A stretch of 51,620 nucleotides of DNA from a virus. Its lineage: Duplodnaviria > Heunggongvirae > Uroviricota > Caudoviricetes. Position 1 is the first letter of the stretch. Every line of letters begins with the position of its first letter. Position numbers and translations under genes: made by a program. The stretch covers positions 1 to 51,620 of the IMG/VR virus record IMGVR_UViG_2541047950_000002; one strand, given 5' to 3'. The notes under the pieces were generated by a model. It saw only the letters and a program-made list of their open reading frames with translations. It did no database searches and was not told the DNA's origin. Below are positions 6,806 through 40,286 of this stretch, one piece after another.

Positions 6806-7498
6806 TTAATTGTGTCGCTTAAGGGTTTGTGACTGACTGATTAAGACCTTCCCAAAGACCATAAACCGGTGTTCATTTTCGCTGGTAATTCCCCATTCAC
6901 GGTAAATCTGGTTATCAGAAATTACCAGTAGTTTGTCAGGTATCATTTGCAGTCGTTTGACATAAATTTTATCATCAAAACCAAACACATAGATACCATC
7001 CCCATCAAACTGATTGATACTGATATCAACGAAGATGAGATCTCCTGGCTCAATGGTTGGACACATACTGTCCCCACGAACGTTGATAACTTTAATGTGA
7101 TTGGCTGGTCGTCCTCCAAACATCGATACAGCATTATCAGTTATGTATTCAATGGCATGAATCACATCAATGACATCACCGCCCTGGATAAGGCCATTTC
7201 CCGCACTGGCACTGACATCCAGCATTTCAATACGGAATACATCCTTCACCTGCGCAACATCCTCACCAGTACTGTTTTTACATACAGTATTACTTTTGAA
7301 GTCTGAGGTAAAGAGATCTGCAATATCAACACCTAAGCTCCTGGCAATATTACTCAGGGCTTGTTCAGTGAATTGTTTCTGCTTACCTGTTTCCAGGCGT
7401 GAGATATTCGCCGCATCCACTCCTATTGCTTCAGCGAGATCGGCGATTTTCATGTTCTTCGCCTGGCGAAGTTGTCTGACTCGATTTCCTATGTTCAT
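6806..7498 (-). CDS. CI-like prophage repressor (XRE HTH plus S24 LexA-like peptidase domain)
   Basis: 230 aa; N-terminal HTH (NIGNRVRQLRQAKNMKIADLAEAIGV); C-terminal S24-type domain (RGDSMCPTIEPGDLIFVD); divergent from the cro-like gene. Confidence 0.85.
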   Translation of the reverse strand: MNIGNRVRQLRQAKNMKIADLAEAIGVDAANISRLETGKQKQFTEQALSNIARSLGVDIADLFTSDFKSNTVCKNSTGEDVAQVKDVFRIEMLDVSASAGNGLIQGGDVIDVIHAIEYITDNAVSMFGGRPANHIKVINVRGDSMCPTIEPGDLIFVDISINQFDGDGIYVFGFDDKIYVKRLQMIPDKLLVISDNQIYREWGITSENEHRFMVFGKVLISQSQTLKRHN

Positions 7499-7856: not shown

Positions 7857-8400
7857 GCATCACTGGAAAGTGGAAAAACAGCCTGAGTGGTACGTGAAAG
7901 CGGTCAGAAAAACTATCGCGGCGTTGCCGGGTGGTTACGCTGAAGCAGCTGAGTGGCTGGATGTAACAGAGAACGCTTTATTCAATCGCCTTCGTGCCGA
8001 TGGCGATCAGATTTTCCCGCTGGGATGGGCAATGATTTTACAGCGCGCGGCTGGCACTCACTACATTGCGGATGCTGTCGCACAGTCTGCTGGTGGGGTG
8101 TTTGTATCGCTTCCTGACATTGAGGAAGTAGAGAACGCCGATATAAACCAGCGCCTGCTGGAAGTCATCGAACAGATCGGGAGTTACTCAAAGCAGATTC
8201 GTTCGGCAATCGAAGATGGGGTAGTGGAGCCACACGAGCAGACAGCAATGAATGATGAGTTGTATCTGTCAATTTCGAAGCTCCAGGAGCATGCGGCACT
8301 GGTCTACAAAATTTTCTGCGCTCCAGAAAAGAGTGACGCCCGCGAGTGTGCAGCTCCGGGCGTCGTGGCGTTTTGTGTCTGTGGAGAAACTAACGCATGA
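7849..8400 (+). CDS. CII-like regulatory protein (CP76-type)
   Basis: 183 aa with GTG start overlapping the cro end; position and recalled family similarity. Confidence 0.45.
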   Translation: MGKHHWKVEKQPEWYVKAVRKTIAALPGGYAEAAEWLDVTENALFNRLRADGDQIFPLGWAMILQRAAGTHYIADAVAQSAGGVFVSLPDIEEVENADINQRLLEVIEQIGSYSKQIRSAIEDGVVEPHEQTAMNDELYLSISKLQEHAALVYKIFCAPEKSDARECAAPGVVAFCVCGETNA

Positions 8401-9560
8401 ACAGTTTAACGGCAAATAACCGTTTGTCGCAACAGCTGGTGGTCAGTGTCGCTGCACACCTGTTGTTACGGCATGAATGCAGATTACCAAATCACCTGGC
8501 TGTAAGTAACCACAGAGAACTTTACCTGACTGTGGGGGGCGAGTTGTGCAGGAACTTAACCGCTGGTTTCGTGACGGAAGAGGACTTTATGTTCATGTTA
8601 TTCGTTGGGAGCCAGAAACACAGCGCGTTATCTATCTTCGCAAAGACTACCCGCATGAGTGCTTTAGTCCTTTGTGGAAATTCAGGCGTGATTTTGTTGA
8701 GTGTGAAGGACCACCAGCATATTGATTCTGCAATTCCGGGACGTTACACTGTACCGGCACCTTATAAAGCGGGTGCCGGGATTGGCGTCCTGAAATTGAT
8801 TACTGAGCATAACCGCGCTCATGCGGTTTTTTCGTGTCATGAGCATTGCTACGCCCAAATTATGGTGGGGCGTACAGGGCCGACTTCGGTCGGGCCGGGT
8901 TCGGTAGTCTCCGGTAACGCCAACCCTGTACGTCTCACCACCTCTGTGATTGGCGTCCCATGTGGTGAGTTTTCTAAAAAACTGACTACCGGGGCTGTCA
9001 CTATGACTACTCTCCCAACCCTCTCTCAACCTGAAATTGCCATCGTTGATGGTCAGGCTGTTACATCTTCTTTGGCTGTTGCTGACTTCTTCTCTAAACG
9101 TCATGACGATGTTCTGAAAAAGATCCGCATTTTGGATTGTTCTCCAGAGTTTTGTGCCCGCAATTTTGCGGAGACATCAATTTTGGTACGCCAGCCCAAC
9201 GGCGGTACTCGCAAACTTCCTTGCTATCAAATCACCCGCGACGGTTTTGCGTTTCTTGCCATGGGCTTCACTGGTAAACGTGCTGCCCGGTTCAAAGAGG
9301 CATACATCAACGCCTTTAACCTGATGGAGAAACAGCTTTCAAAGCCCGCTGTACCGAGCGACGTTGCACATAACGCCAGCGTTCTCTGTTCCTACATTTC
9401 ATCAATTCATCAGGTCTGGCTGCAGCAGCTTTATCCTATGTTGGCAAAAGCCGAATCTCCGCTGGCTGTTAGCTTATATGACTATATTAATGATGCTTCG
9501 GCGCTGGCCTGCCTCATAAATTTGTCGCTGAACCCTTCAGAGGCAAGGGGGCGCAAATGA
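8397..9560 (+). CDS. ORF with C-terminal Rha (pRha) domain; N-terminal 200 aa unassigned (alternative start 9003)
   Basis: ATG at 8397 overlaps the upstream stop (ATGA); residues from MTTLPTLSQ (nt 9003) onward resemble Rha regulatory proteins; a second frame is also open over 8507-8722. Confidence 0.45.
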   Translation: MNSLTANNRLSQQLVVSVAAHLLLRHECRLPNHLAVSNHRELYLTVGGELCRNLTAGFVTEEDFMFMLFVGSQKHSALSIFAKTTRMSALVLCGNSGVILLSVKDHQHIDSAIPGRYTVPAPYKAGAGIGVLKLITEHNRAHAVFSCHEHCYAQIMVGRTGPTSVGPGSVVSGNANPVRLTTSVIGVPCGEFSKKLTTGAVTMTTLPTLSQPEIAIVDGQAVTSSLAVADFFSKRHDDVLKKIRILDCSPEFCARNFAETSILVRQPNGGTRKLPCYQITRDGFAFLAMGFTGKRAARFKEAYINAFNLMEKQLSKPAVPSDVAHNASVLCSYISSIHQVWLQQLYPMLAKAESPLAVSLYDYINDASALACLINLSLNPSEARGRK

Positions 9561-14275: not shown

Positions 14276-14292
14276 TTTTGTGGAGAAAGTTG

Positions 14293-14673
14293 ATGCGTGA
14301 TATTCAGATGGTTCTTGAACGCTGGGGGGCATGGGCGGCAAGTGGTAACACCGGGGTGGACTATTCTCCGATCGCTGCCGGATTCAAAGGACTTTTACCA
14401 TCTGCCACTAAACCACGTCCGGCCTGCTGCGATGATGACGGACTTATCATTGAAAACTGTCTTGCTCGTCTGAAGCAGAAAAAACCTGAGGAGTATTCGC
14501 TTCTCATTGCTCATTATTTGTTGCGAATATCAAAAAGACAGATAGCCAGGACGAGAAAGAAAAGCGAAAAAGCAATACGAATTGAGATGCAGATAGCCGA
14601 AGGGTTTATTGACGGATGTTTGTCTGTGCTGGGGGTAAGACTGGAGATGGACGACTGGCTGCTAAAAAAGTAA
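14293..14673 (+). CDS. Q: late-gene antiterminator Q (phage 21/933W type)
   Basis: MRDIQMVLERWGAWAA N-terminus recalls Q of the 21/933W group; last gene of the coupled early operon, followed by a terminated short leader. Confidence 0.65.
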   Translation: MRDIQMVLERWGAWAASGNTGVDYSPIAAGFKGLLPSATKPRPACCDDDGLIIENCLARLKQKKPEEYSLLIAHYLLRISKRQIARTRKKSEKAIRIEMQIAEGFIDGCLSVLGVRLEMDDWLLKK

Positions 14674-15236: not shown

Positions 15237-16295
15237 ATGCTTAATACTGTAAAAATATCCAGTTGTGAGTTAATCAACGCCGACTGCCTGGAATTTATCC
15301 GGTCGTTACCCGAAAATTCTGTTGACCTGATAGTCACGGATCCGCCGTACTTTAAAGTGAAGCCTGAGGGCTGGGATAACCAGTGGAAGGGCGACGATGA
15401 TTACCTGAAGTGGCTGGACCAGTGTCTTGCGCAGTTCTGGCGGGTGCTGAAACCTGCCGGAAGTCTTTACCTGTTCTGTGGCCATCGCCTAGCATCTGAT
15501 ATCGAAATCATGATGCGTGAACGCTTCAGTGTGCTGAACCATATTATCTGGGCAAAGCCGTCCGGACGCTGGAACGGGTGCAACAAGGAAAGCCTGAGGG
15601 CGTATTTCCCCGCCACAGAGCGCATTCTGTTCGCGGAACATTATCAGGGGCCGTATCGTCCGAAAGATGCCGGGTATGAGGCGAAGGGCAGGGCACTGAA
15701 ACAGCATGTGATGGCTCCGCTGATTGCTTACTTTCGTGATGCGCGTGCTGCCCTAGGGATAACGGCAAAACAGATAGTGGATGCCACAGGAAAGAAAAAC
15801 ATGGTGTCGCACTGGTTCAGTGCCAGTCAGTGGCAACTGCCGAACGAAAGTGATTATCTGAAATTACAGGCGCTGTTTGCCCGGGTGGCAGAAGAGAAGC
15901 ATCAGCGGGGTGAACTGGAGAAGCCCCACCACCAGCTGCTGGAGACGTATACTTCACTGAACCGGCAGTATGCGGAACTGCAGAGTGAATATAAGCATCT
16001 GCGGCGGTATTTTGGCGTGACGGCGCAGGTGCCGTACACCGATGTGTGGACGCATAAACCGGTGCAGTACTATCCCGGGAAACATCCGTGCGAAAAACCG
16101 GCAGAAATGCTGCAGCAGATAATCAGCGCGAGCAGTCGTCCGGGGGACCTGGTTGCAGATTTTTTCATGGGGTCGGGTTCGACAGTCAAAGCCGCGATGG
16201 CACTGGGGCGTCGTGCAACTGGTGTTGAGCTGGAGACTGAACGTTTTGAGCAGACGGTCAGGGAAGTTCAGGATTTAGCCAGTCAGAACGGATGA
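15237..16295 (+). CDS. DNA methyltransferase (N4/N6 amino-MTase, DPPY motif)
   Basis: 352 aa; N-terminal VTDPPYF catalytic motif; C-terminal FFMGSGST AdoMet-binding motif. Confidence 0.7.
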   Translation: MLNTVKISSCELINADCLEFIRSLPENSVDLIVTDPPYFKVKPEGWDNQWKGDDDYLKWLDQCLAQFWRVLKPAGSLYLFCGHRLASDIEIMMRERFSVLNHIIWAKPSGRWNGCNKESLRAYFPATERILFAEHYQGPYRPKDAGYEAKGRALKQHVMAPLIAYFRDARAALGITAKQIVDATGKKNMVSHWFSASQWQLPNESDYLKLQALFARVAEEKHQRGELEKPHHQLLETYTSLNRQYAELQSEYKHLRRYFGVTAQVPYTDVWTHKPVQYYPGKHPCEKPAEMLQQIISASSRPGDLVADFFMGSGSTVKAAMALGRRATGVELETERFEQTVREVQDLASQNG

Positions 16296-16600: not shown

Positions 16601-16626
16601 GGCTCGCTTTTGCGGGCCTTTTTTGT
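16601..16626 (+). terminator. terminator-like hairpin after the tRNA cluster
   Basis: GGCTCGC-TTTT-GCGGGCC (one mismatch) followed by a T-run. Confidence 0.4.
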
Positions 16627-16756
16627 ATCCGCGCCACGCCCGGCGCATATCAACCACAGAGCCTTTCGGGGGTGAGCTTACGGAGTGGTCAGTGTGACTT
16701 TCTCTGTGGGCAGATCGCTCCCGGGCGTTGGCTCACCCACCTAAAGGAACGTCACG

Positions 16757-17188
16757 ATGTTTGGTATTTTCAAAAAGAAAACCCGCAGAGCAGCAGCGGA
16801 AATTAAAAAGTTTGAGAAACGTGATCTGGCACAGGCGGTTATTAATGCTGCCTACCTGGTAGCCTATGCAGATGGTGAATGTGAGGCTTCAGAGAAAGCG
16901 AAGATCGAGCAGGTCTTGCGTAACCAGCCAGCGTTGTCCGCGTTTACGTCAGAAATTAATGCTATCAGTGCCACGATCACAGGTCAGCTTGACACCAACT
17001 TTAAAATTGGTCGTCGAGCGGCGTTGCGTGAAATTGAAGATGTGAAACACGATACGCGTGAAGCGGAAGATGTGCTGGATGTGGCGGTGGCCATTGCTGA
17101 AGCAGATGGTGAAATTGAGCCGGAAGAGCGTAAGGTTCTGGAAGAGATTGCTGGTGTTCTTGGCCTGCGACTGGAGAACCACCTGTGA
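16757..17188 (+). CDS. TerB-like domain protein
   Basis: 143 aa; two ADG motifs (YADGECEASEKAKI and EADGEIEPEERKVL) typical of the TerB fold; sits where stx lies in Stx phages. Confidence 0.55.
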   Translation: MFGIFKKKTRRAAAEIKKFEKRDLAQAVINAAYLVAYADGECEASEKAKIEQVLRNQPALSAFTSEINAISATITGQLDTNFKIGRRAALREIEDVKHDTREAEDVLDVAVAIAEADGEIEPEERKVLEEIAGVLGLRLENHL

Positions 17189-17349: not shown

Positions 17350-17596
17350 CCGGGTATCAGTCATGCCCCGAAAATTTTAAATGTCTCACAATTCAGACGG
17401 TTGACAGTTGTCTGTTTTGCGGGGAGTTTGTTAAAAGAAACAGGCATGGTGAATCCCCCTGAGCGGAGGGGCGACTGGTGCATTAGGTGTTATCTTTGAT
17501 ACCCAGGAAAGTAAACGCGCGGGTTTGGTGGCACCGGGCTGAACTCACCGGGAGGCACCCGGCATCATGCGCATGATGATACAGATACGCGGCTTT

Positions 17597-17622
17597 AGCC
17601 CCTCTCCGGAGGGGCTTTTATA
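17597..17622 (+). terminator. rho-independent terminator
   Basis: Perfect hairpin AGCCCCTC-TCCG-GAGGGGCT followed by TTTTATATGAATTTT. Confidence 0.6.
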
Positions 17623-17650
17623 TGAATTTTGTAAGATATGAGTAAACTAA

Positions 17651-17986
17651 TTATGGACACTGTTGTTTTAGTCCGTAAGGGCATATTTGCAGAATGCAAT
17701 GATTATTAAAGCATTCTTTCAATACGTTATCTGAATTTGCAGGACATTCCTGGCTGTTTTTGATTAAATCCCAGAATCTTTTATTGAATGGTACAACGTT
17801 GTAAATGGTTACAGGTAGCACTTTGTTATTAAGTACGATACCTGTGTGAGTCAACGTAAATATACTTTCAGGAGGTAAGAAAACATCCGATTGATACCAG
17901 ATTATTAATTTTATTTTACTCCATATGGCTGAAAAAGATATTCCGCATGATGGCTGGATAACTGTATCAATCACAATCCACTTCAT
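17651..17986 (-). CDS. orphan AT-rich protein, 111 aa, Cys-rich C-terminus; convergent to the late operon
   Basis: ATG at 17984-17986 with consensus AAGGAGG RBS on the - strand; very low GC; very AT-rich upstream region. Confidence 0.55.
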
Positions 17987-20215: not shown

Positions 20216-20365
20216 TGAAAAAGGCCGCCAGCAATGAAGGAAAGGGATGAACTTTTGTCCACTACATGAATGCTGGCGGCTGGTAAAACGATCATGATGA
20301 CAGCGAAGTCTGGGTGTTTTTCTACAAAAATAAGTAAATTATGTCAACTATAACGGTGAGAAAAC

Positions 20366-20545
20366 ATGACATTTCTGAACCAGTTAATGCTGTACTTCTG
20401 TACGGCGGTCTGTGTGCTGTATCTTCTTTCGGGTGGGTACAGGGCTGTGCGCGATTTCTGGCGCAGACAGATTGATAAAAGGGCCGCTGAGAAAATCAGC
20501 GCCAGTCAGTCAGCCGGAACCAGACCCGAAGAGCCGCTCATTTAG
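20366..20545 (+). CDS. small membrane protein, 59 aa
   Basis: ATG with upstream GGTGAG; hydrophobic N-terminus; not in the ORF track. Confidence 0.3.
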   Translation: MTFLNQLMLYFCTAVCVLYLLSGGYRAVRDFWRRQIDKRAAEKISASQSAGTRPEEPLI

Positions 20546-20585
20546 TTGCAATCTTCTTTACAACACCTTTCAACGAGAAAATCCC

Positions 20586-20870
20586 ATGTCAGAAATAAAA
20601 CCCCTGGTCACTGCTGAGGCAGTGAAAGACGCGCTGCGCTCAGAAGATGTGCGTGGAGCACTGAAACAGAAAGTCCGCCAGACATTTGAAGCGCAGATAG
20701 AAGCGGAGGTGGATGCGATTCTGGATACGCTACTGGGCGAGCAGCCAGGCGAACAGCCAGAGCCGGAACCGCAACCGGAAGATATCACCTCAGAAAACGG
20801 CGATATTCAGCCCGAATCACCGGTGGTTGATGCGACTGAAGCACAACCCGAACCGGGCACAATGCTGTAA
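20586..20870 (+). CDS. hypothetical acidic protein, 94 aa
   Basis: ATG at 20586 within the longer track ORF 20412-20870; acidic Pro/Glu-rich C-terminus. Confidence 0.4.
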
Positions 20871-20946
20871 AGGTGAGTCAGGGCCATCAGTAAAGTACTG
20901 CTGGCCTTTTTCATGTTGTGAGCTTCCGGATTGCGGGAGACGGGGT

Positions 20947-21162
20947 ATGTACCAGATGGAAAAAATAACAACAGGTGTGTCATACACCACGTCAGCGGTG
21001 GGAACGGGCTACTGGTTCCTGCAGCTGCTGGACAGGGTTTCCCCGTCTCAGTGGGCGGCAATAGGCGTGCTGGGGAGTCTGCTGTTTGGTCTGCTGACGT
21101 ACCTGACGAACCTGTATTTCAAAATCAGAGAGGACCGTCGTAAGGCGGCACGGGGAGAGTAG
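20947..21162 (+). CDS. S: pinholin (S21-type class II holin) with dual-start motif
   Basis: [71 protein letters not shown] closely matches phage 21 S as recalled; Met1/Met4 dual start; GGAG RBS. Confidence 0.75.
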
Positions 21163-21165
21163 GTG

Positions 21166-21723
21166 ATGAACCATGAAGAAATGAATCAGCGCTTCAGTCG
21201 TCTGGAAAATGAAATTGCTGAACTGAATAAAAAACTGTCGGCGCTGATGCCTTCTGAAGATGAAAAAAAACGCCGCGATGAGCAGTTTGCTGCGTTTGAC
21301 GATTATTGTCGGAAAGTGATGAGCAGAAATCTCGCAGAGTGTTTCAGTATTCATAATGATAATTTCAGTGAGCTGGAATGGGAGTGTAACCGGCCATCCT
21401 TTGTTGTATCCGGTGATGCTGGGAAAATAACCATCTCAGAAAATGGGAAAGTAACACCTCCATCGCACCAGCACAGTGAGGAGCTCATTGAATTTGCCAT
21501 TGATTACCTGAAGAACAATAAAAAACAGGGGCTGATGCAGCGCATTGGTCGTTGCATGGGGTATCTGCAGGTAGCCGCTGAGATTGAAGCGCTGGCCAGT
21601 GGTGCTGATAAGGATGCAGTTGTGCGGGAGACCGTTCTTCGTGATTTCAATACTCCACCCTTTAAGACTGAGCCTGATAACTGGATCCAGCCGGGGCTGA
21701 CTTATCTTAAAGTGCGTATTTAG
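21166..21723 (+). CDS. hypothetical protein, about 185 aa, inserted between holin and endolysin
   Basis: Starts immediately after the holin stop (GTG 21163 or ATG 21166); no recognisable lysis-protein features. Confidence 0.45.
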   Translation: MNHEEMNQRFSRLENEIAELNKKLSALMPSEDEKKRRDEQFAAFDDYCRKVMSRNLAECFSIHNDNFSELEWECNRPSFVVSGDAGKITISENGKVTPPSHQHSEELIEFAIDYLKNNKKQGLMQRIGRCMGYLQVAAEIEALASGADKDAVVRETVLRDFNTPPFKTEPDNWIQPGLTYLKVRI

Positions 21724-21759
21724 TGGGCCAGGGACAGCGGCTGAATATTTAATATATCC

Positions 21760-22293
21760 ATGAACGCAAAAATCAAATACGGCCTGTCAGCTGCTGTTCT
21801 GGCGCTGATTGCCGCAGGGGCTTCTGCGCCTGAAATCCTCGACCAGTTTCTGGATGAAAAAGAAGGTAACCACACCACGGCATACCGTGATGGTGTGGGT
21901 ATCTGGACCATCTGCCGTGGAGCCACCCGGGTGGATGGTAATCCTGTGATTCCTGGCATGAAGCTGTCGAAGGGGAAATGCGACCGGGTTAACGCCATTG
22001 AGCGTGATAAGGCGCTGGCATGGGTGGAGAAAAACATCAAAGTGCCACTGACTGAACCCCAGAAAGCGGGAATTGCGTCATTCTGTCCTTACAACATTGG
22101 CCCCGGTAAGTGTTTCCCGTCGACGTTTTATAAACGAATTAATGCAGGCGATCGAAAAGGTGCCTGCGAAGCGATTCGCTGGTGGATTAAGGACGGTGGC
22201 AGAGACTGCCGTATTCGCTCAAATAATTGCTACGGTCAGGTATCCCGTCGCGACCAGGAGAGTGCGCTGGCATGCTGGGGTATCGACAGGTAG
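21760..22293 (+). CDS. R: SAR endolysin (R21-type lysozyme)
   Basis: N-terminal signal-anchor-release segment (GLSAAVLALIAAGASAPE); lysozyme-like core; paired with the pinholin as in phage 21. Confidence 0.75.
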   Translation: MNAKIKYGLSAAVLALIAAGASAPEILDQFLDEKEGNHTTAYRDGVGIWTICRGATRVDGNPVIPGMKLSKGKCDRVNAIERDKALAWVEKNIKVPLTEPQKAGIASFCPYNIGPGKCFPSTFYKRINAGDRKGACEAIRWWIKDGGRDCRIRSNNCYGQVSRRDQESALACWGIDR

Positions 22294-22566
22294 CAGAATA
22301 TTTTGCTGAAAAATGACGTTGACCAACGCGGACGGATAACACGAAATCCTGCGAACTGGCAAAACCTAAGTGAATAAAGTCAGGAACATTGTTTCACGCA
22401 GAGGCACCGTAATGGTGCCTTTGGCATTTCTGCGCTTCGCACAAGCGTAAATAAACCAAAGAACCTTTCAGGATGAGCCCTGGTGGATAACCGGCAGTGG
22501 TCTGGTTAACCCTCTTTGGGCTGGTTATTCCTGTGCGCAGGGTTCATCACTAAAAGGAAATAACCG

Positions 22567-23136
22567 ATGAATATGATAACCGTGCCGTTTCACGGCGATT
22601 CTCTTTATGTGGTTAACCATAACGGCGAACCATACGTTCCCATGAAACCTGTCGTTGCGGGGATGGGGCTGGCCTGGCAATCACAGTTGGCTAAGTTAAG
22701 ACAGCGTTTTGCGTCAACTATAACGGAAATCGTTATGGTTGCTGAGGACGGGAAACGACGCAATATGGTGTCCCTGCCACTTCGAAAACTTGCAGGCTGG
22801 TTACAAACCATCAATCCCAACAAAGTAAAACCCGGAATCCGCGACAAGGTTATCCAGTATCAGGAAGAGTGCGACGATGTTCTCTATGAATACTGGACGA
22901 AGGGTTTTGTCGTTAATCCTCGTCAAATGAGCGTGATGGAAGAACTCAACCAGGCATGCGCTGACATGAAACGGGATAAAAACATTGCCAGTCTGTTTGG
23001 TACAGGGTTAAACGAATGGAAACTGGTTAAAGCCGCGCATGTATCAAAAATTCGCACGTTGATAAACGAAGCGAATCTGCTGATTGGTTTTGTCCTGGCT
23101 GATACAGGCAAAGGAAAAATCACAAAGACGGATTGA
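22567..23136 (+). CDS. AntA/AntB-type antirepressor-like protein
   Basis: 189 aa; N-terminal FHGDSLYVVNHNGEPYVPMKPVVAGMGL resembles the AntA domain as recalled; has its own upstream intergenic region. Confidence 0.5.
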   Translation: MNMITVPFHGDSLYVVNHNGEPYVPMKPVVAGMGLAWQSQLAKLRQRFASTITEIVMVAEDGKRRNMVSLPLRKLAGWLQTINPNKVKPGIRDKVIQYQEECDDVLYEYWTKGFVVNPRQMSVMEELNQACADMKRDKNIASLFGTGLNEWKLVKAAHVSKIRTLINEANLLIGFVLADTGKGKITKTD

Positions 23137-23150
23137 TGGAGTGGCGTCTA

Positions 23151-23285
23151 ATGATATCAGGCAAACTCATAACGCTGGCGAAGACCATCTGTGTGATTGT
23201 CGGCGTTTCATTTTCGCTAATGATGGTTGCTCTTTTTCTTTCCATAGCCTGGATGGCGTTGACTTCGGCAGGGCTGGTGGGGTGA
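23151..23285 (+). CDS. small hydrophobic protein, 44 aa
   Basis: ATG with GGAG 9 nt upstream; predicted single membrane helix; under 60 aa. Confidence 0.25.
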   Translation: MISGKLITLAKTICVIVGVSFSLMMVALFLSIAWMALTSAGLVG

Positions 23286-23405
23286 CAGTGACTGATGACG
23301 ACAATTTATTTAAACAGATGAGTACTGAATTTATTCGGGCAACGGCATTTGCCATTCGCATTGTGGCAATTGCGGTTCTAATCCGGGAAATCCGCTGGTG
23401 GTGAA

Positions 23406-24173
23406 ATGAATAATAACTCTGCAAAACCGTTTCTCCCGTGGTTAGGAGGGAAGCGTCGTCTGGCAAAACATATTCTGCCGTTATTTCCTGAGCACACTCT
23501 GTATGTGGAACCGTTCTGTGGCGGTGCGGCACTGTTCTTTATGAAAAAACCGAGCTGCGCTGAAATCATCAACGATATAAACAGTGATATCGTTAATCTC
23601 TACCGTGTGGTGAAGTACCACCAGGAGGAATTTTCCCGCCAGTTTCAGTGGATGCTCGCCAGTCGTGAGATGTGGAATGAGGTGATAAATCAGCACACGG
23701 AGTACATGACGGATATCCAGCGGGCTGTCCGTTTCTTTTTTATCCAGAAGTGCGCGTATGGCGGAAGAGCATACAGTCGGGCATTTGGAGTTAAAACTCA
23801 CAGACCGCAGATAATCCCCGGGAATACAGAGCAGTTATTGCAGGAAGCCCGTGATCGGCTGGCGCGGGCAACTATTGAACACCTTGACTGGGAGGTCTGT
23901 ATCGCACGGTATGACCGCCCGACAACGCTGTTTTACTGCGATCCTCCGTATTGGTTGGATGGTGGTTACGGCATTGATTTTTCATTCTGCAATTATGAGC
24001 GCATGGCAGAACTTGCCCGCACAATAAAAGGCAAAATGATTATATCCCTGAACGATACGCAGGAAATGAGACGATTGTTTGAGGGGATGAATATTCATCA
24101 TGTTGCTCATCGTTATACTGTACCACGTGGTAAGACAAGCAGTGTCAGCGAGCTGATAATCTGCAATTTCTGA
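23406..24173 (+). CDS. Dam-family N6-adenine DNA methyltransferase
   Basis: 255 aa; N-terminal PWLGGKRRL AdoMet motif and DPPY catalytic motif. Confidence 0.75.
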   Translation: MNNNSAKPFLPWLGGKRRLAKHILPLFPEHTLYVEPFCGGAALFFMKKPSCAEIINDINSDIVNLYRVVKYHQEEFSRQFQWMLASREMWNEVINQHTEYMTDIQRAVRFFFIQKCAYGGRAYSRAFGVKTHRPQIIPGNTEQLLQEARDRLARATIEHLDWEVCIARYDRPTTLFYCDPPYWLDGGYGIDFSFCNYERMAELARTIKGKMIISLNDTQEMRRLFEGMNIHHVAHRYTVPRGKTSSVSELIICNF

Positions 24174-24181
24174 CAGGGGGC

Positions 24182-24685
24182 ATGGTGAGCATAAACCGAA
24201 TTCTTTCCGCGTTTACTGTTATTCTGCTGGTGGTCTGTGGTGCGCTTAGTCTGGGGCTGAATCATTACCGCGATAACGCCATCACCTACAAAGCGCAGCG
24301 CGATAAAAAAGCCAGAGAGCTGGAACAGGCGAATGCCACCATTACTGACATGCAGGTGCGCCAGCGTGATGTTGCTGCGCTCGATGCAAAATACTCGAGG
24401 GAATTAGCCGATGCGAGAGCTGAAAATGAAACTCTGCGTGCTGATATTGCCGCTGGTCGTAAGCGCCTGCGGCTCAACGCCACCTGCCCCGGTACCGTGC
24501 GTGAAGCCACCGGCACCTCCGGCGTGGATAATGCAACCGGCCCCCGACTGGCAGACACCGCTGAACGGGATTATTTCAACCTCAGAGAACGGTTGATGAC
24601 AATGCAGAAGCAGCTGGAAGGGGCGCAGGAATATATACGCACTCAGTGCACTAAGCTGGCTTTTTATTATCCGGAGGATACATGA
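24182..24685 (+). CDS. Rz: i-spanin Rz
   Basis: 167 aa; strong similarity to lambda Rz as recalled (NHYRDNAITYKAQRDK..., VDNA..PRLADTAERDYF). Confidence 0.8.
   Translation: MVSINRILSAFTVILLVVCGALSLGLNHYRDNAITYKAQRDKKARELEQANATITDMQVRQRDVAALDAKYSRELADARAENETLRADIAAGRKRLRLNATCPGTVREATGTSGVDNATGPRLADTAERDYFNLRERLMTMQKQLEGAQEYIRTQCTKLAFYYPEDT
24411..24596 (+). CDS. Rz1: o-spanin Rz1 (lipoprotein) embedded in Rz in the +1 frame
   Basis: 61 aa; lipobox LVVSAC and proline-rich CVKPPAPPAWIMQPAPDWQTPLNGII match lambda Rz1. Confidence 0.7.
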   Translation: MRELKMKLCVLILPLVVSACGSTPPAPVPCVKPPAPPAWIMQPAPDWQTPLNGIISTSENG

Positions 24686-24906
24686 AGAAATTACGGGTAA
24701 CCGTAGAACCTTTTCAGGGAACAATTCCGTTCCGTATTTTGCAGCGTGGTCGTGTTCTTGTTGAAGGTTCGTTCAGTGGTAAATGTACGCAATTACACAC
24801 CCGGACCTTTCAGGTGAATGCCACGAATGAAGAGCTAACCGTTGAGTGTACGATGAATGCCGCTAAATGCCGCATGGTATCCGCTGCATTACAGCCAGTG
24901 TGTTGA
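24682..24906 (+). CDS. hypothetical protein, 74 aa
   Basis: ATGA overlap with the Rz stop. Confidence 0.35.
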   Translation: MKKLRVTVEPFQGTIPFRILQRGRVLVEGSFSGKCTQLHTRTFQVNATNEELTVECTMNAAKCRMVSAALQPVC

Positions 24907-25166
24907 GCGACCTTATTATCCATGGCGCGGTATTGTCGCCGTATTCCCGTATTAACAGAGACCGCAGCCCGACAGGGAGACTCCTCTGCGCGAGTGTGCG
25001 GGGATAATCAAAAACGATACACACCGGGGTTTACCGCGTTAACGGAGCGCGGCGTTGTCCCCTCATGGTCGCCTGTCCGGTGCGATGGTGGAAGAAACTG
25101 GATTTTGTTGCAACTGATAACCATTATCATTTTCGCGGGTCCTTTCCGGCGATCCGGGCCGTTACG

Positions 25167-25178
25167 GGGCGGCGACCT
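25167..25178. other. cosN cohesive-end site, identical to the lambda 12-nt overhang
   Basis: GGGCGGCGACCT present and followed by CGCGGGTTTTC.CTATTTATGAAAATTTTCCGG, which matches the lambda left end as recalled. Confidence 0.7.
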
Positions 25179-25215
25179 CGCGGGTTTTCACTATTTATGA
25201 AAATTTTCCGGGATC

Positions 25216-25314
25216 CATGTCCGGTTTCTCTGCAAGTTAACTATATGAAAAATATAAAAACAGGTCTTCTGTGAACCGGACATGCGCAAAAAATGGGCAT
25301 GTGAACCGGACATG
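25216..25314. promoter_or_regulatory. cosB-like terminase small-subunit binding repeats
   Basis: Three copies of AACCGGACATG (one inverted at 25216-25226, direct at 25271-25284 and 25301-25314) around an AT-rich IHF-like segment, between cosN and nu1. Confidence 0.45.
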
Positions 25315-25361
25315 ACCTGTTTTGTTGTGATTGTGAGGTGAGAGTTTTTGCGAGGTGAGGA

Positions 25362-25871
25362 GTGGCTACGCAGACTGAAGTTGCCAGGCATTTAAGTCTG
25401 ACCGATCGCCAGCTTCGCAGATTGCAGAAATTGCCGGGTGCTCCGATATCGAATAAGCGAGGGCAACTGGATCTGGATGCCTGGCGCGATTTTTACATAT
25501 CGTATCTGAGGAGAAGTAAAAACGATGTGCCTGATGGCGATAGCGAAGACGACTATGAGGAGAAATTGCTTATTGCCAGATGGGAACTGACAGCGGAACA
25601 GGCTGTTACACAGCAGTTAAAAAATGAGGTGTCAAAAGGAAAACTTATTGACACCGGGTTCTGTATTTTTGCCCTCAGTAAGCTGGCAATGGCGTTATCC
25701 AGTACGCTTGATTCCATCCCTTTATCCATGCAGCGACAGTTTCCTGATTTAACACCGCGCCATCTTGACCATCTGAAAACCCTTATTGCGAAGGGGGCAA
25801 ATCAGTGTGCGCGGGCGGGGGATAAATTACCGGATTTACTCGATGAATATATCAGAGCAACAACTGAATAA
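25362..25871 (+). CDS. nu1: terminase small subunit (Nu1-like)
   Basis: 169 aa, GTG start; C-terminal half aligns with lambda Nu1 as recalled (ALSKLA..S.LD.IPLS.QR.FP.L..RH.D.LK). Confidence 0.8.
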   Translation: MATQTEVARHLSLTDRQLRRLQKLPGAPISNKRGQLDLDAWRDFYISYLRRSKNDVPDGDSEDDYEEKLLIARWELTAEQAVTQQLKNEVSKGKLIDTGFCIFALSKLAMALSSTLDSIPLSMQRQFPDLTPRHLDHLKTLIAKGANQCARAGDKLPDLLDEYIRATTE

Positions 25872-38834: not shown

Positions 38835-39532
38835 TGCAGGATATTCACGAAGAAAGTCTGAACGAGTCGGTTAAATCAGAGCAGTCACCGCGGGTGGTAC
38901 TCTGGGAAATCGACCTGACGGTACAGGGCGGTGAGCGGTATTTTTTCTGTAATGAGCTGAATGAAAAAGGGGAGCCGGTGACCTGGCAGGGGCGGAAGTA
39001 TGAGGCGTACCCGATTGAGGGCAGCGGCTTTGAGATGAACGGAAAGGGCAGCAGTGCCCGCCCGTCGCTGACAGTGTCCAATCTTTTCGGGCTGGTCACC
39101 GGGATGGCGGAGGATTTGCAGAGCCTGGTGGGTGCCACGGTGGTCCGTCGCCGGGTGTATGCGCGTTTTCTGGATGCGGTGAATTTTGTGGCAGGCAATC
39201 CTGAGGCAGACCCGGAGCAGGAGCTGACGGACCGGTGGGTGGTGGAGCAGTTATCAGAGCTGACGGCCATGACGGCCTCGTTTGTGCTGGCGACACCGAC
39301 GGAGACGGACGGGGCGCTGTTTCCCGGTCGCATCATGCTGGCGAACACCTGTATGTGGGATTACCGGGGCGATGAGTGCGGGTATAACGGTCCGGCAGTG
39401 GCGGATGAGTTCGACAACCCCACCACGGATATCCGGAAGGACAGATGCAGTAAATGTATGCGCGGGTGTGAGATGCGCGGCATGGCGGTCAATTTTGGCG
39501 GTTTCCTTTCCATCAATAAACTTTCGCAGTAA
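38834..39532 (+). CDS. L: minor tail protein L
   Basis: 232 aa; Cys cluster CSKCMRGCEMRG; similarity to lambda gpL. Confidence 0.85.
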   Translation: MQDIHEESLNESVKSEQSPRVVLWEIDLTVQGGERYFFCNELNEKGEPVTWQGRKYEAYPIEGSGFEMNGKGSSARPSLTVSNLFGLVTGMAEDLQSLVGATVVRRRVYARFLDAVNFVAGNPEADPEQELTDRWVVEQLSELTAMTASFVLATPTETDGALFPGRIMLANTCMWDYRGDECGYNGPAVADEFDNPTTDIRKDRCSKCMRGCEMRGMAVNFGGFLSINKLSQ

Positions 39533-39542
39533 ATCCCGTTTT

Positions 39543-40286
39543 ATGACACAGACTGAATCAGCGATTCTGGTGCATGCCCGGCGGTGTGCGCCAGCGGAGT
39601 CGTGCGGCTTCGTGATAAGCACCCCGGAGGGCGAACGGTACCAGCCCTGCGTGAATATCTCCGCAGAGCCGGAGGCGTATTTTCGTATTACACCGGAAGA
39701 CTGGCTGCAGGCACAGATGCAGGGGGAGATTGTGGCGCTGGTCCACAGTCATCCCGGTGGTCTGCCCTGGCTGAGCGAGGCGGACCGGCGGCTGCAGATA
39801 AAGAGTGCCCTGCCCTGGTGGCTGGTCTGCCGGGGTGAAATTCACCGGTTCCGCTGTGTGCCGCACCTGACCGGACGGCGCTTTGAACACGGTGTGACGG
39901 ACTGTTACACCCTGTTCCGGGATGCATACCATCTGGCGGGGATAACGCTGCCGGATTTTGTGCGTGAGGATGACTGGTGGCGCAACGGCCAGAACCTGTA
40001 CCTGGACAACCTGGCGGAAAACGGCTTTTACCGGGTGTCTCCGTCCTGTGCACAGGCAGGCGATATCCTGCTGTGCTGCTTTGGTTCATCGGTGCCGAAT
40101 CATGCCGCCATTTACTGTGGCAACGGTGAACTGCTTCACCATATACCTGAACAACTGAGTAAACGGGAGAGGTATTCTGAAAAATGGCAACGACGAACGC
40201 ATTCTGTCTGGCGTCACCGCCACTGGTCCGCATCTGCCTTCACGGGGATTTACAACGATTTGGTCGCCGCATCAGCCTGTATGTGA
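39543..40286 (+). CDS. K: tail tip assembly protein K (MPN/NlpC-P60 type)
   Basis: Start MTQTESAIL inside the track ORF 39282-40286; JAMM-like HSHPGG motif; 3' end overlaps I. Confidence 0.8.
   Translation: MTQTESAILVHARRCAPAESCGFVISTPEGERYQPCVNISAEPEAYFRITPEDWLQAQMQGEIVALVHSHPGGLPWLSEADRRLQIKSALPWWLVCRGEIHRFRCVPHLTGRRFEHGVTDCYTLFRDAYHLAGITLPDFVREDDWWRNGQNLYLDNLAENGFYRVSPSCAQAGDILLCCFGSSVPNHAAIYCGNGELLHHIPEQLSKRERYSEKWQRRTHSVWRHRHWSASAFTGIYNDLVAASACM

Follow-up and report, generated by a model that had tools for sequence, protein, structure and literature searches.

A structured RNA leader and accessory genes between the endolysin and spanin genes of a lambdoid Escherichia coli prophage

Introduction

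Which genes separate the endolysin gene from the spanin genes Rz and Rz1 in the lysis region of a lambdoid prophage, and how might their expression be controlled? This question is raised by a viral DNA stretch of 51,620 nt (IMG/VR record IMGVR_UViG_2541047950_000002; the window, by which we mean this whole stretch), which is a lambdoid E. coli prophage of the Shiga toxin (Stx) phage type. An earlier note, made from the letters of the DNA, had described its lysis cassette as split by an antirepressor-like gene, a small membrane open reading frame (ORF) and a Dam methylase, and had suggested that the larger products act late, on competing prophages and on host restriction. With a probability of roughly 70%, we read the 1.9 kb between the endolysin gene (R) and Rz/Rz1 as accessory cassettes that were acquired independently of each other and lie stacked in the Q-dependent late operon, where an RNA leader would gate the antirepressor-like gene (here ant), a small ORF would be accessory and a methylase would be made late. 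The arrangement of this slot is real but largely known; the part that is worth following up is the leader RNA.

Results

A stack of cassettes between R and Rz

By Pfam, the prophage carries a set of pinholin, signal-anchor-release (SAR) endolysin and spanins, consisting of a holin of the P21 type, a lysozyme with a hydrophobic N-terminus (MNAKIKYGLSAAVLALIAAGASAP) and Rz with the embedded Rz1 (Table 1). The lysis cassette is not contiguous: an ORF of 561 nt lies between the holin gene and R, and 1888 nt lie between the R stop and the Rz start. The gap of about 1.9 kb in the earlier note is thus confirmed, together with its gene content and order. R is followed by a spacer of 273 nt, ant (189 amino acids, aa), ORFs encoding 44 and 28 aa, and a gene for a D12-class methylase (255 aa); the 28-aa ORF had been missed.

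We aligned the slot of the window, which contains ant and the methylase, with those of O157:H7 (ant only), 2013C-3033 (methylase only) and SCU-111 (neither). All four variants share the ~86 nt that directly follow the R stop. The ant cassette extends from about 22380 to 23150 and includes the hairpin of the spacer, and the methylase cassette is located between the small ORFs and Rz. The order R, ant, small ORF, Rz is the standard layout of Stx phages, and VT2-Sakai is annotated with S, R, ant and Rz. As the ant protein is furthermore 92–95% identical across ~250 Stx and related phages, the interruption by ant is already known; the split that had caught attention is real, but it is the normal layout of these phages. 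The lysis regions of 933W and VT2-Sakai share with the window R, a spacer of ~270 nt with the same leader, ant at the above identity, the small ORF and Rz, whereas the window adds the 28-aa ORF and the methylase before Rz, and its moron slot is occupied by TerB, not by stx.

The region from 21700 to 24750 and the chromosome of E. coli IBS28 share 99.4% identity. Of 5426 complete E. coli genomes, 4992 match parts of this segment, and only four contain at least 80% of it; in the phage collection, no record covered at least 80%.

Gene direction is uniform from Q through the terminase. The promoter scan found no sigma-70-like site in the spacer (22294–22566), and the lone promoter-like site in 20300–25400 lies inside the methylase gene (24132–24160; chance expectation 5.9). 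Late co-transcription of the slot genes, as already proposed in the earlier note, is plausible because the genes share one direction, the spacer has no promoter-like site, the junctions are tight or overlapping and the leader starts with a terminator. In being extra genes inserted in a lambdoid late operon, the cargo resembles morons, which have their own promoter before and a terminator after them (Juhala et al. 2000; PMC4104026). It differs from them in that the terminator-like hairpin lies upstream of ant and that no promoter-like site occurs in the spacer.

Table 1. Features of the window; positions refer to its first letter
Feature	Position	Strand	Match or remark
CI-like repressor	6806–7498	-	
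Q	14278–14673	+	
DNA methylase (N6/N4 type)	15237–16295	+	PF01555; upstream of tRNAs
Class II (P21 S-type) holin	20947–21162	+	PF04971, E 5.9e-32; RefSeq counterpart in IBS28
186-aa ORF between holin and endolysin	21163–21723	+	phrog_1085, E 8e-110
SAR-type endolysin R (lysozyme)	21760–22293	+	PF00959, E 4.7e-24
R-proximal spacer, unstructured	22294–22379	+	fold z = +0.64
Terminator-like hairpin and interrupted U tract	22399–22432	+	first module element; -17.6 kcal/mol
Hairpin 2, GCGCUU-CGCAC-AAGCGU	22431–22449	+	-7.2 kcal/mol, z = -2.3
Rod RNA (P0, P1, asymmetric internal loop, P2)	22464–22557	+	-43.1 kcal/mol, z = -3.7
ant, 189 aa	22567–23136	+	P22_AR_N + ORF11CD3
44-aa single-pass membrane protein	23151–23285	+	phrog_4906, E 5.4e-27
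28-aa hydrophobic ORF	23318–23404	+	C-terminal part of phrog_3246
Orphan D12-class N6-adenine DNA methyltransferase, 255 aa	23406–24173	+	PF02086, E 4.4e-27
Rz i-spanin	24182–24685	+	PF03245, E 6.6e-50
Rz1 o-spanin lipoprotein, embedded in Rz	24411–24596	+	PF06085, E 2.6e-21

A covarying RNA leader upstream of ant

The intergenic region at 22294–22566 contains the hairpin AGGCACC-GTAAT-GGTGCCT (22402–22420), just as the earlier note had described; that this hairpin is part of a widespread structured RNA leader had escaped notice. The spacer folds better than its shuffled versions (z-score, z = -3.2), and the source of this signal is its 3' 170 nt. The leader module consists of a terminator-like hairpin, a small hairpin and a rod-like RNA of ~95 nt that ends at the ribosome site. 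In the RNA, the stem of the first hairpin extends to 10 bp (22399–22408 / 22414–22423) and is followed by the interrupted U tract UUUGGCAUUU; its z is -4.3, and none of 200 shuffles was equally stable. The rod is built of helices of ~15 and 8–10 bp that are stacked, with a conserved asymmetric internal loop between them whose 3' side reads UAUGCGGC. At the base of the rod, CCUUU pairs with AAAGG of the Shine-Dalgarno region (GG at 22556–22557). Inspection of the conserved leader by eye showed no boxA, no consensus for integration host factor (IHF) and no promoter.

The module recurs upstream of homologous genes in seven other genera, including Salmonella, Photorhabdus, Providencia, Yersinia, Symbiopectobacterium and Serratia. 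Its recurring parts are a GC hairpin with a T run (T6–8 in the relatives, at the position of the terminator hairpin), a small hairpin in which the stem stays paired although its sequence varies, and an element of ~100 nt that is closed by AAUGAGCCUUUG...CAAAGGUUCAUU just before the Shine-Dalgarno sequence. Since homologous genes of other genera have a hairpin in the same place before them, the hairpin of the window is no chance feature. A pattern derived from the conserved part matched at least 120 IMG/VR contigs, and among the matches listed the element lies ~20 nt upstream of the start codons of many different genes, with a fixed spacing to the Shine-Dalgarno sequence and the ATG. According to Pfam, the downstream genes encode KilA-N (with P63C or ORF11CD3), Phage_pRha (with ORF11CD3), P22_AR_N with ORF11CD3, and HNH_3. 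More divergent copies precede TerB, one secreted protein and unassigned genes.

Covariation was assessed on an alignment of 59 sequences with less than 94% identity. RNAalifold yielded 26 pairs, 20 of which have compensatory changes. For a structure of 33 pairs, 93.5% of the cells pair compared to 34–49% with slid partners, and 22 pairs have double changes compared to 5–9; the observed values were reached in none of 500 shuffles. Hairpin 2 covaries at all four of its four pairs, and 100% of its cells are paired. A covariance model detected 93 copies in 78 sources, often several per phage, and matched the window leader at 22418–22578 (82 bits, E about 1e-21). On the model-fitted alignment, double changes occur in 27 of the 33 pairs. 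G-U pairs are frequent (for instance, 75 of 91 at one P1 pair), and the model scores at most 20 bits on the reverse strand compared to 80–188 bits on the sense strand. We thus conclude that the leader is a sense-strand RNA. An alternative apical hairpin, P3, was rejected: at one pair the extended P2 shows 10 double changes, whereas P3 has one-sided changes only at this position.

The leader was unmatched in Rfam 15, both in a scan of the window at gathering thresholds and at E up to 1 for the spacer and five consensus loci. It is undescribed in Rfam 15 and in the literature that we searched; an older description may exist. The anti-sRNAs AgvB/AsxR and the Pas small RNAs (sRNAs) known from prophages of enterohaemorrhagic E. 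coli lie near the esterase/holin region, not in the R-Rz spacer, and nothing relevant was found in the supplements of PMC4104026. A protein-based locus search in IMG/VR returned near-identical E. coli copies only, which were of little use for covariation.

Copies of the leader are common in other phages and at other positions. The window itself contains a second, divergent copy at 16617–16768 (+; 40 bits, E about 1e-9) directly upstream of TerB (ATG at 16757), just after three tRNA genes and in the slot that holds stx in Stx phages. In SCU-111 and KY176, copies are found upstream of a Rha gene after Rz. In P22 (NC_002371.2; locus L236, 1185–1356), the leader lies at 39484–39655 between gene 15 and rha with 158.9 bits. 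The annotated start of P22 rha (39575) overlaps the leader and the model-aligned start is near 39645, ~70 nt downstream; thus, ORF201 is probably ~23 codons too long. ES18, HK544 and Stx2 phage 1717 contain the leader as well, and its common form is present in at least 954 of 5426 complete E. coli genomes, with either no feature annotated or an over-extended Rha coding sequence across it. Several contigs have two to three copies, each before a different accessory gene (L201, L112, L129, L176, L211, L217 and L229). What precedes the leader is a tRNA, the end of Rz or a short unit in which a TTGACT...TATGCT promoter stands directly before the terminator of the module. Judging from its sequence, the latter combination looks like pR'-tR'.

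The ant-like protein and the small ORFs

The ant product contains a P22_AR_N domain (PF10547; E 9.1e-45, residues 5–113) and an ORF11CD3 domain (E 4.8e-07), the latter of which is also found in KilA-N and Rha proteins. In Pfam at E up to 0.01, neither an AntA/AntB domain nor the C-terminal domain of P22 Ant was matched, and the label AntA-like given by the earlier note has to be replaced. With tblastn, the protein is 48.8% identical to P22 Ant over residues 1–126, where the match ends. The predicted fold of its N-domain resembles Dachshund/Ski, the N-domain of baculovirus Orf22 and the DNA-binding domains of APSES proteins (Mbp1); going by this model, the protein most likely acts via an N-domain of the DNA-binding type. 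With the C-domain of P22 Ant absent, it is only a putative antirepressor. A sequence search of PDB with the protein gave chance matches only, and NCBIfam and PADLOC gave no match for ant or the small ORFs. Experiments on the 'ant' gene of phi24B are not transferable, as that gene differs and is similar to the C-terminus of P22 Ant. Within codons 6–14 of ant we further observed a terminator-like hairpin (TGCCG-TTT-CACGGCG, then ATTCTCTTTA; 22583–22597, +). It may be a chance occurrence, as the region has nine such sites compared to 4.7 expected.

The hydrophobic 44-aa ORF is present where the earlier note had placed it, and its independence from ant had not been recognised. It occurs in all four aligned slot variants, with or without ant and the methylase, and always just upstream of Rz. 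Its alternative ATG start, at 23136, overlaps with the stop of ant in the sequence TGATG, and in O157 the stop of the ORF overlaps the GTG start of Rz. Among the loci collected there are 15 distinct alleles, all of them intact, hydrophobic and 43–44 codons long. The ratio of nonsynonymous to synonymous polymorphism (pN/pS) is 0.53 in its frame compared to 0.80 and 1.02 in the two other frames. We regard the ORF as a real small membrane protein that is tied to Rz and independent of ant. Its position suggests that it is probably a lysis accessory; it would be a constant companion of Rz that is translationally coupled to its neighbours. A 106-aa ORF at 23084–23404 (phrog_3246 match) was rejected in favour of the 44-aa ORF, since pN/pS in its frame is 0.8–1.0 and only its last 28 codons recur elsewhere. 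In SCU-111, the same 28-aa ORF directly abuts Rz.

The methylase as a rare insertion

In the methylase, motif I (EPFCGGAALF) precedes motif IV, DPPY (residues 179–182). It scores 115.2 against the subfamily model TIGR00571 (cut-off 114.85) and 72 against the Dam equivalog NF008152 (cut-off 441), and the closest solved structures in PDB are DpnM and EcoDam. The previous description as a Dam-family enzyme with DPPY thus holds for the D12 class and the motif, whereas Dam applies only at the subfamily level and several GATC-contact residues of EcoDam are not conserved. In the phmmer alignment, K9, N120, L122, R124, P134 and Y138 of EcoDam, which we take to be its GATC-contact residues in the EcoDam-DNA structure, are replaced by P, G, R, a gap, K and P; EcoDam Y119 and R137 are retained. 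A specificity for GATC is therefore doubtful as far as the alignment goes. The enzyme is an orphan, as had been proposed: no nuclease partner is adjacent (its neighbours are the 28-aa ORF and Rz), and PADLOC gave methylase models only. It shares with other orphan Dam-family methylases of phages (T4 Dam, P1 Dam and those of Mu-like prophages) the D12 class, the order of motifs I and IV, the lack of a nuclease and its presence on a phage. It differs in its location in a lysis cassette, which is rare, and in its unconserved GATC-contact residues.

That the methylase is a separate and rare cassette was not part of the earlier description. The gene is found in 5 of 5426 complete E. coli genomes, and a large protein collection contains two clusters, at 100% and 87% identity, with ~200 members in total. 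The next relatives are at most 61% identical, with the nearest one outside E. coli at 58%, and those examined are in Mu-like prophages. The two E. coli alleles (window; 2013C-3033, L002 4035–4802) share 80% identity and differ mainly in residues 116–144, 182–186 and 228–247. These variable segments align with the DNA-recognition hairpin and the post-DPPY loop of EcoDam. One cluster (P0002) joins the first two segments of one allele to the tail of the other, which suggests that DNA-recognition segments are shuffled. The specificity possibly differs between the alleles.

The methylase ATG follows the preceding stop after 1 nt in the window and after 7 nt in 2013C-3033. Behind the methylase stop, an 8-nt junction (CAGGGGGC) gives Rz its ribosome site and a new ATG. 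The gene would thus be a rare cassette that was precisely inserted between Rz and the small ORFs; it carries its own Shine-Dalgarno sequence, and the start of Rz was re-created. Made late, the enzyme might methylate the progeny DNA ahead of packaging, and its target site is not necessarily GATC. Overall, the methylase insertion is new, rare and of a known type, and it is a minor addition to the slot.

Discussion

From their sequences, the three RNA elements appear to be a portable leader of enterobacterial temperate phages that stands before many accessory late genes (KilA-N, Rha, P22_AR_N, HNH and TerB). As the leader starts with a terminator, expression of the following gene would need an antiterminated polymerase. 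The terminator hairpin would restrict expression of the cargo to Q-modified polymerase and block stray transcription in the lysogen, and the rod would limit or time translation, possibly via processing of the RNase III type. The most likely role of the leader would then be to make potentially harmful cargo genes dependent on Q antitermination and to limit their translation. Tight control of the cargo would fit the report that Rha is harmful to phage growth when misregulated: a citing paper (PMC4936722) states that Rha of P22 and phi80 harms lytic growth when IHF, a regulator of rha, is missing. It would also fit the RNA control of other antirepressor genes, among them the gene behind the isrK/C4 pair of this prophage. 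A further-reaching reading is that the element is an undescribed, widespread cis-regulatory RNA that defines a portable 'late-operon cargo cassette' of enterobacterial temperate phages (Stx phages, P22, ES18 and prophages of Klebsiella and Enterobacter), insulates and gates interchangeable accessory genes and might sense a specific host or phage factor. We hold this reading tentatively, at somewhat less than even odds.

Several observations weigh against a stack of cassettes with a gating leader. The hairpin at 22399–22432 fails the terminator rule of the terminator scan, and as the U tract in the window is interrupted, it may terminate poorly. The anti-Shine-Dalgarno helix is the least supported part of the structure, with 68–72% of its cells paired, and the role of the leader is read from its position and structure. 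The methylase copy of IBS28 is frameshifted, and the methylase is thus dispensable. Lastly, P22 Ant is a proven antirepressor and has the same N-domain as the ant product, which makes an antirepressor role possible.

Other explanations of the leader can be compared on the same evidence. The rod may be an RNase III-type processing site, where cleavage would cut the cargo mRNA off the lysis transcript and either expose or destroy its ribosome site. Its two stacked helices with an asymmetric internal loop (P0/P1 and P2 being backed by covariation) and its intercistronic location in a polycistronic late transcript speak for such a site, and in predicted structure it is similar to the RNase III hairpins of T7 and of the lambda N leader, which are likewise intercistronic two-helix rods with an internal loop that adjoin a ribosome site. 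The rod sequence is, however, far more conserved than a generic site needs, and since more than the pairing is conserved, a specific ligand or protein seems more probable than generic double-stranded RNA; we consider this explanation rather unlikely. That the leader gives rise to an antisense RNA which represses its own downstream gene in trans or in cis, in the manner of P1 c4 and isrK/C4, seems quite improbable to us. This prophage does carry isrK and C4 upstream of its early Rha/Ash gene, and like P1/P7 c4 and isrK/C4 the window leader is a structured RNA before an antirepressor-class gene, with a similar order of terminator-ended element, multi-helix RNA, ribosome site and gene; several copies per phage genome would permit cross-talk. 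Nonetheless, there is no similarity in sequence or model, no match to the Rfam C4 clan at E up to 1 for the window leader and five consensus-type loci, and, by eye, no obvious complement of the apical loops at the ribosome site. A c4-type RNA has a closing stem with two target-complementary loops, whereas the window leader is a rod that precedes many types of genes and stays nearly constant while these vary widely. Least likely is that the module works at the DNA level only, as a recombination linker of mosaic gene modules, and not as an RNA. The module does lie at mosaic junctions, with a highly conserved sequence between variable genes, but the compensatory changes in 27 of 33 pairs, the frequent G-U pairs, the very different scores of the two strands and the fixed spacing to the Shine-Dalgarno sequence and ATG all argue for an RNA.

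For the cargo, the competing explanation is that the ant product is a true late antirepressor against the repressors of co-resident prophages and that the methylase is a GATC Dam that shields the progeny from restriction. The identity to the N-terminal 126 residues of P22 Ant agrees with the former, all the more as P22 Ant acts on the repressors of several phages and trans-acting antirepressors couple the induction of Salmonella prophages (PMC3121763), and the D12 class, the DPPY motif and the missing nuclease partner agree with the latter. However, the C-domain of P22 Ant is replaced here by ORF11CD3, which is common to KilA-N and Rha proteins, the predicted N-domain fold is of the DNA-binding type, and the phi24B ant that has been studied is a different gene. 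For the methylase, the low score against the Dam equivalog and the loss of six GATC-contact residues point away from GATC. We thus consider this pair of functions unlikely. The known genes of P22 place the reading as a leader-gated accessory cassette in context. P22 Ant of the immI region (with arc, mnt and sar RNA) shares with the window gene the P22_AR_N domain and heavy control of expression, whereas the window gene has no P22 Ant C-domain and is located in the late operon between R and Rz. P22-type relatives (L014–L021) have an arc-like gene and a sar-type hairpin upstream; the window gene instead has the leader of terminator, hairpin and rod. P22 rha (ORF201) and phi80 rha are late accessory genes of the same domain-shuffled class (pRha with ORF11CD3 in relatives), and P22 rha has the same leader, for which we found no description in the literature searched. 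It differs in its pRha N-domain, as opposed to P22_AR_N, and in its location after Rz.

The strongly covarying leader precedes antirepressor-class and other accessory genes in Stx phages, in P22 and in about one-fifth of the complete E. coli genomes. If it gates cargo genes, it offers a handle on how temperate phages silence potentially self-harmful regulators in lysogens and dose them late. The leader may bear on the old Rha/IHF phenotype, and it can be used as a marker to locate cargo cassettes in prophages. It also corrects gene starts, as in P22 rha, whose annotated start appears to be inside the RNA.

Further features of the prophage

The genes after Q are, in order, the PF01555 methylase, three tRNAs, the TerB gene, a SASA esterase, the lysis genes, and Nu1 and the large terminase, all of them pointing rightward. 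The late region thus contains two unrelated methylases, one of the PF01555 family and one of the D12 class. Other prophages hold YdfR or DUF1327 between holin and endolysin, and this slot is therefore another variable insertion point. Behind Rz, a 74-aa ORF (24682–24906, +; phrog_2571 match) has an ATG that overlaps the Rz stop (ATGA) and is kept in related prophages; between it and Nu1 there are ~450 nt without a clear gene.

In the early region, isrK (59 bits) and the C4 antisense RNA (82 bits) are encoded in tandem at 8757–8945 (+), upstream of a gene with Rha and Ash domains. The likely ATG of this gene is at 9004, and the listed ORF spans 8397–9560. The C4 loop CGGUAGUC is complementary to GACUACCG (8984–8991, near the ribosome site), so the listed ORF probably starts too early. 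Lastly, the sRNA STnc100 (139 bits; 17415–17627, +) adjoins a convergent iraM-like gene (17651–17986, -), which corresponds to the annotated anti-adapter IraM in IBS28. This pair is located between the TerB/DUF3927 genes and the esterase.

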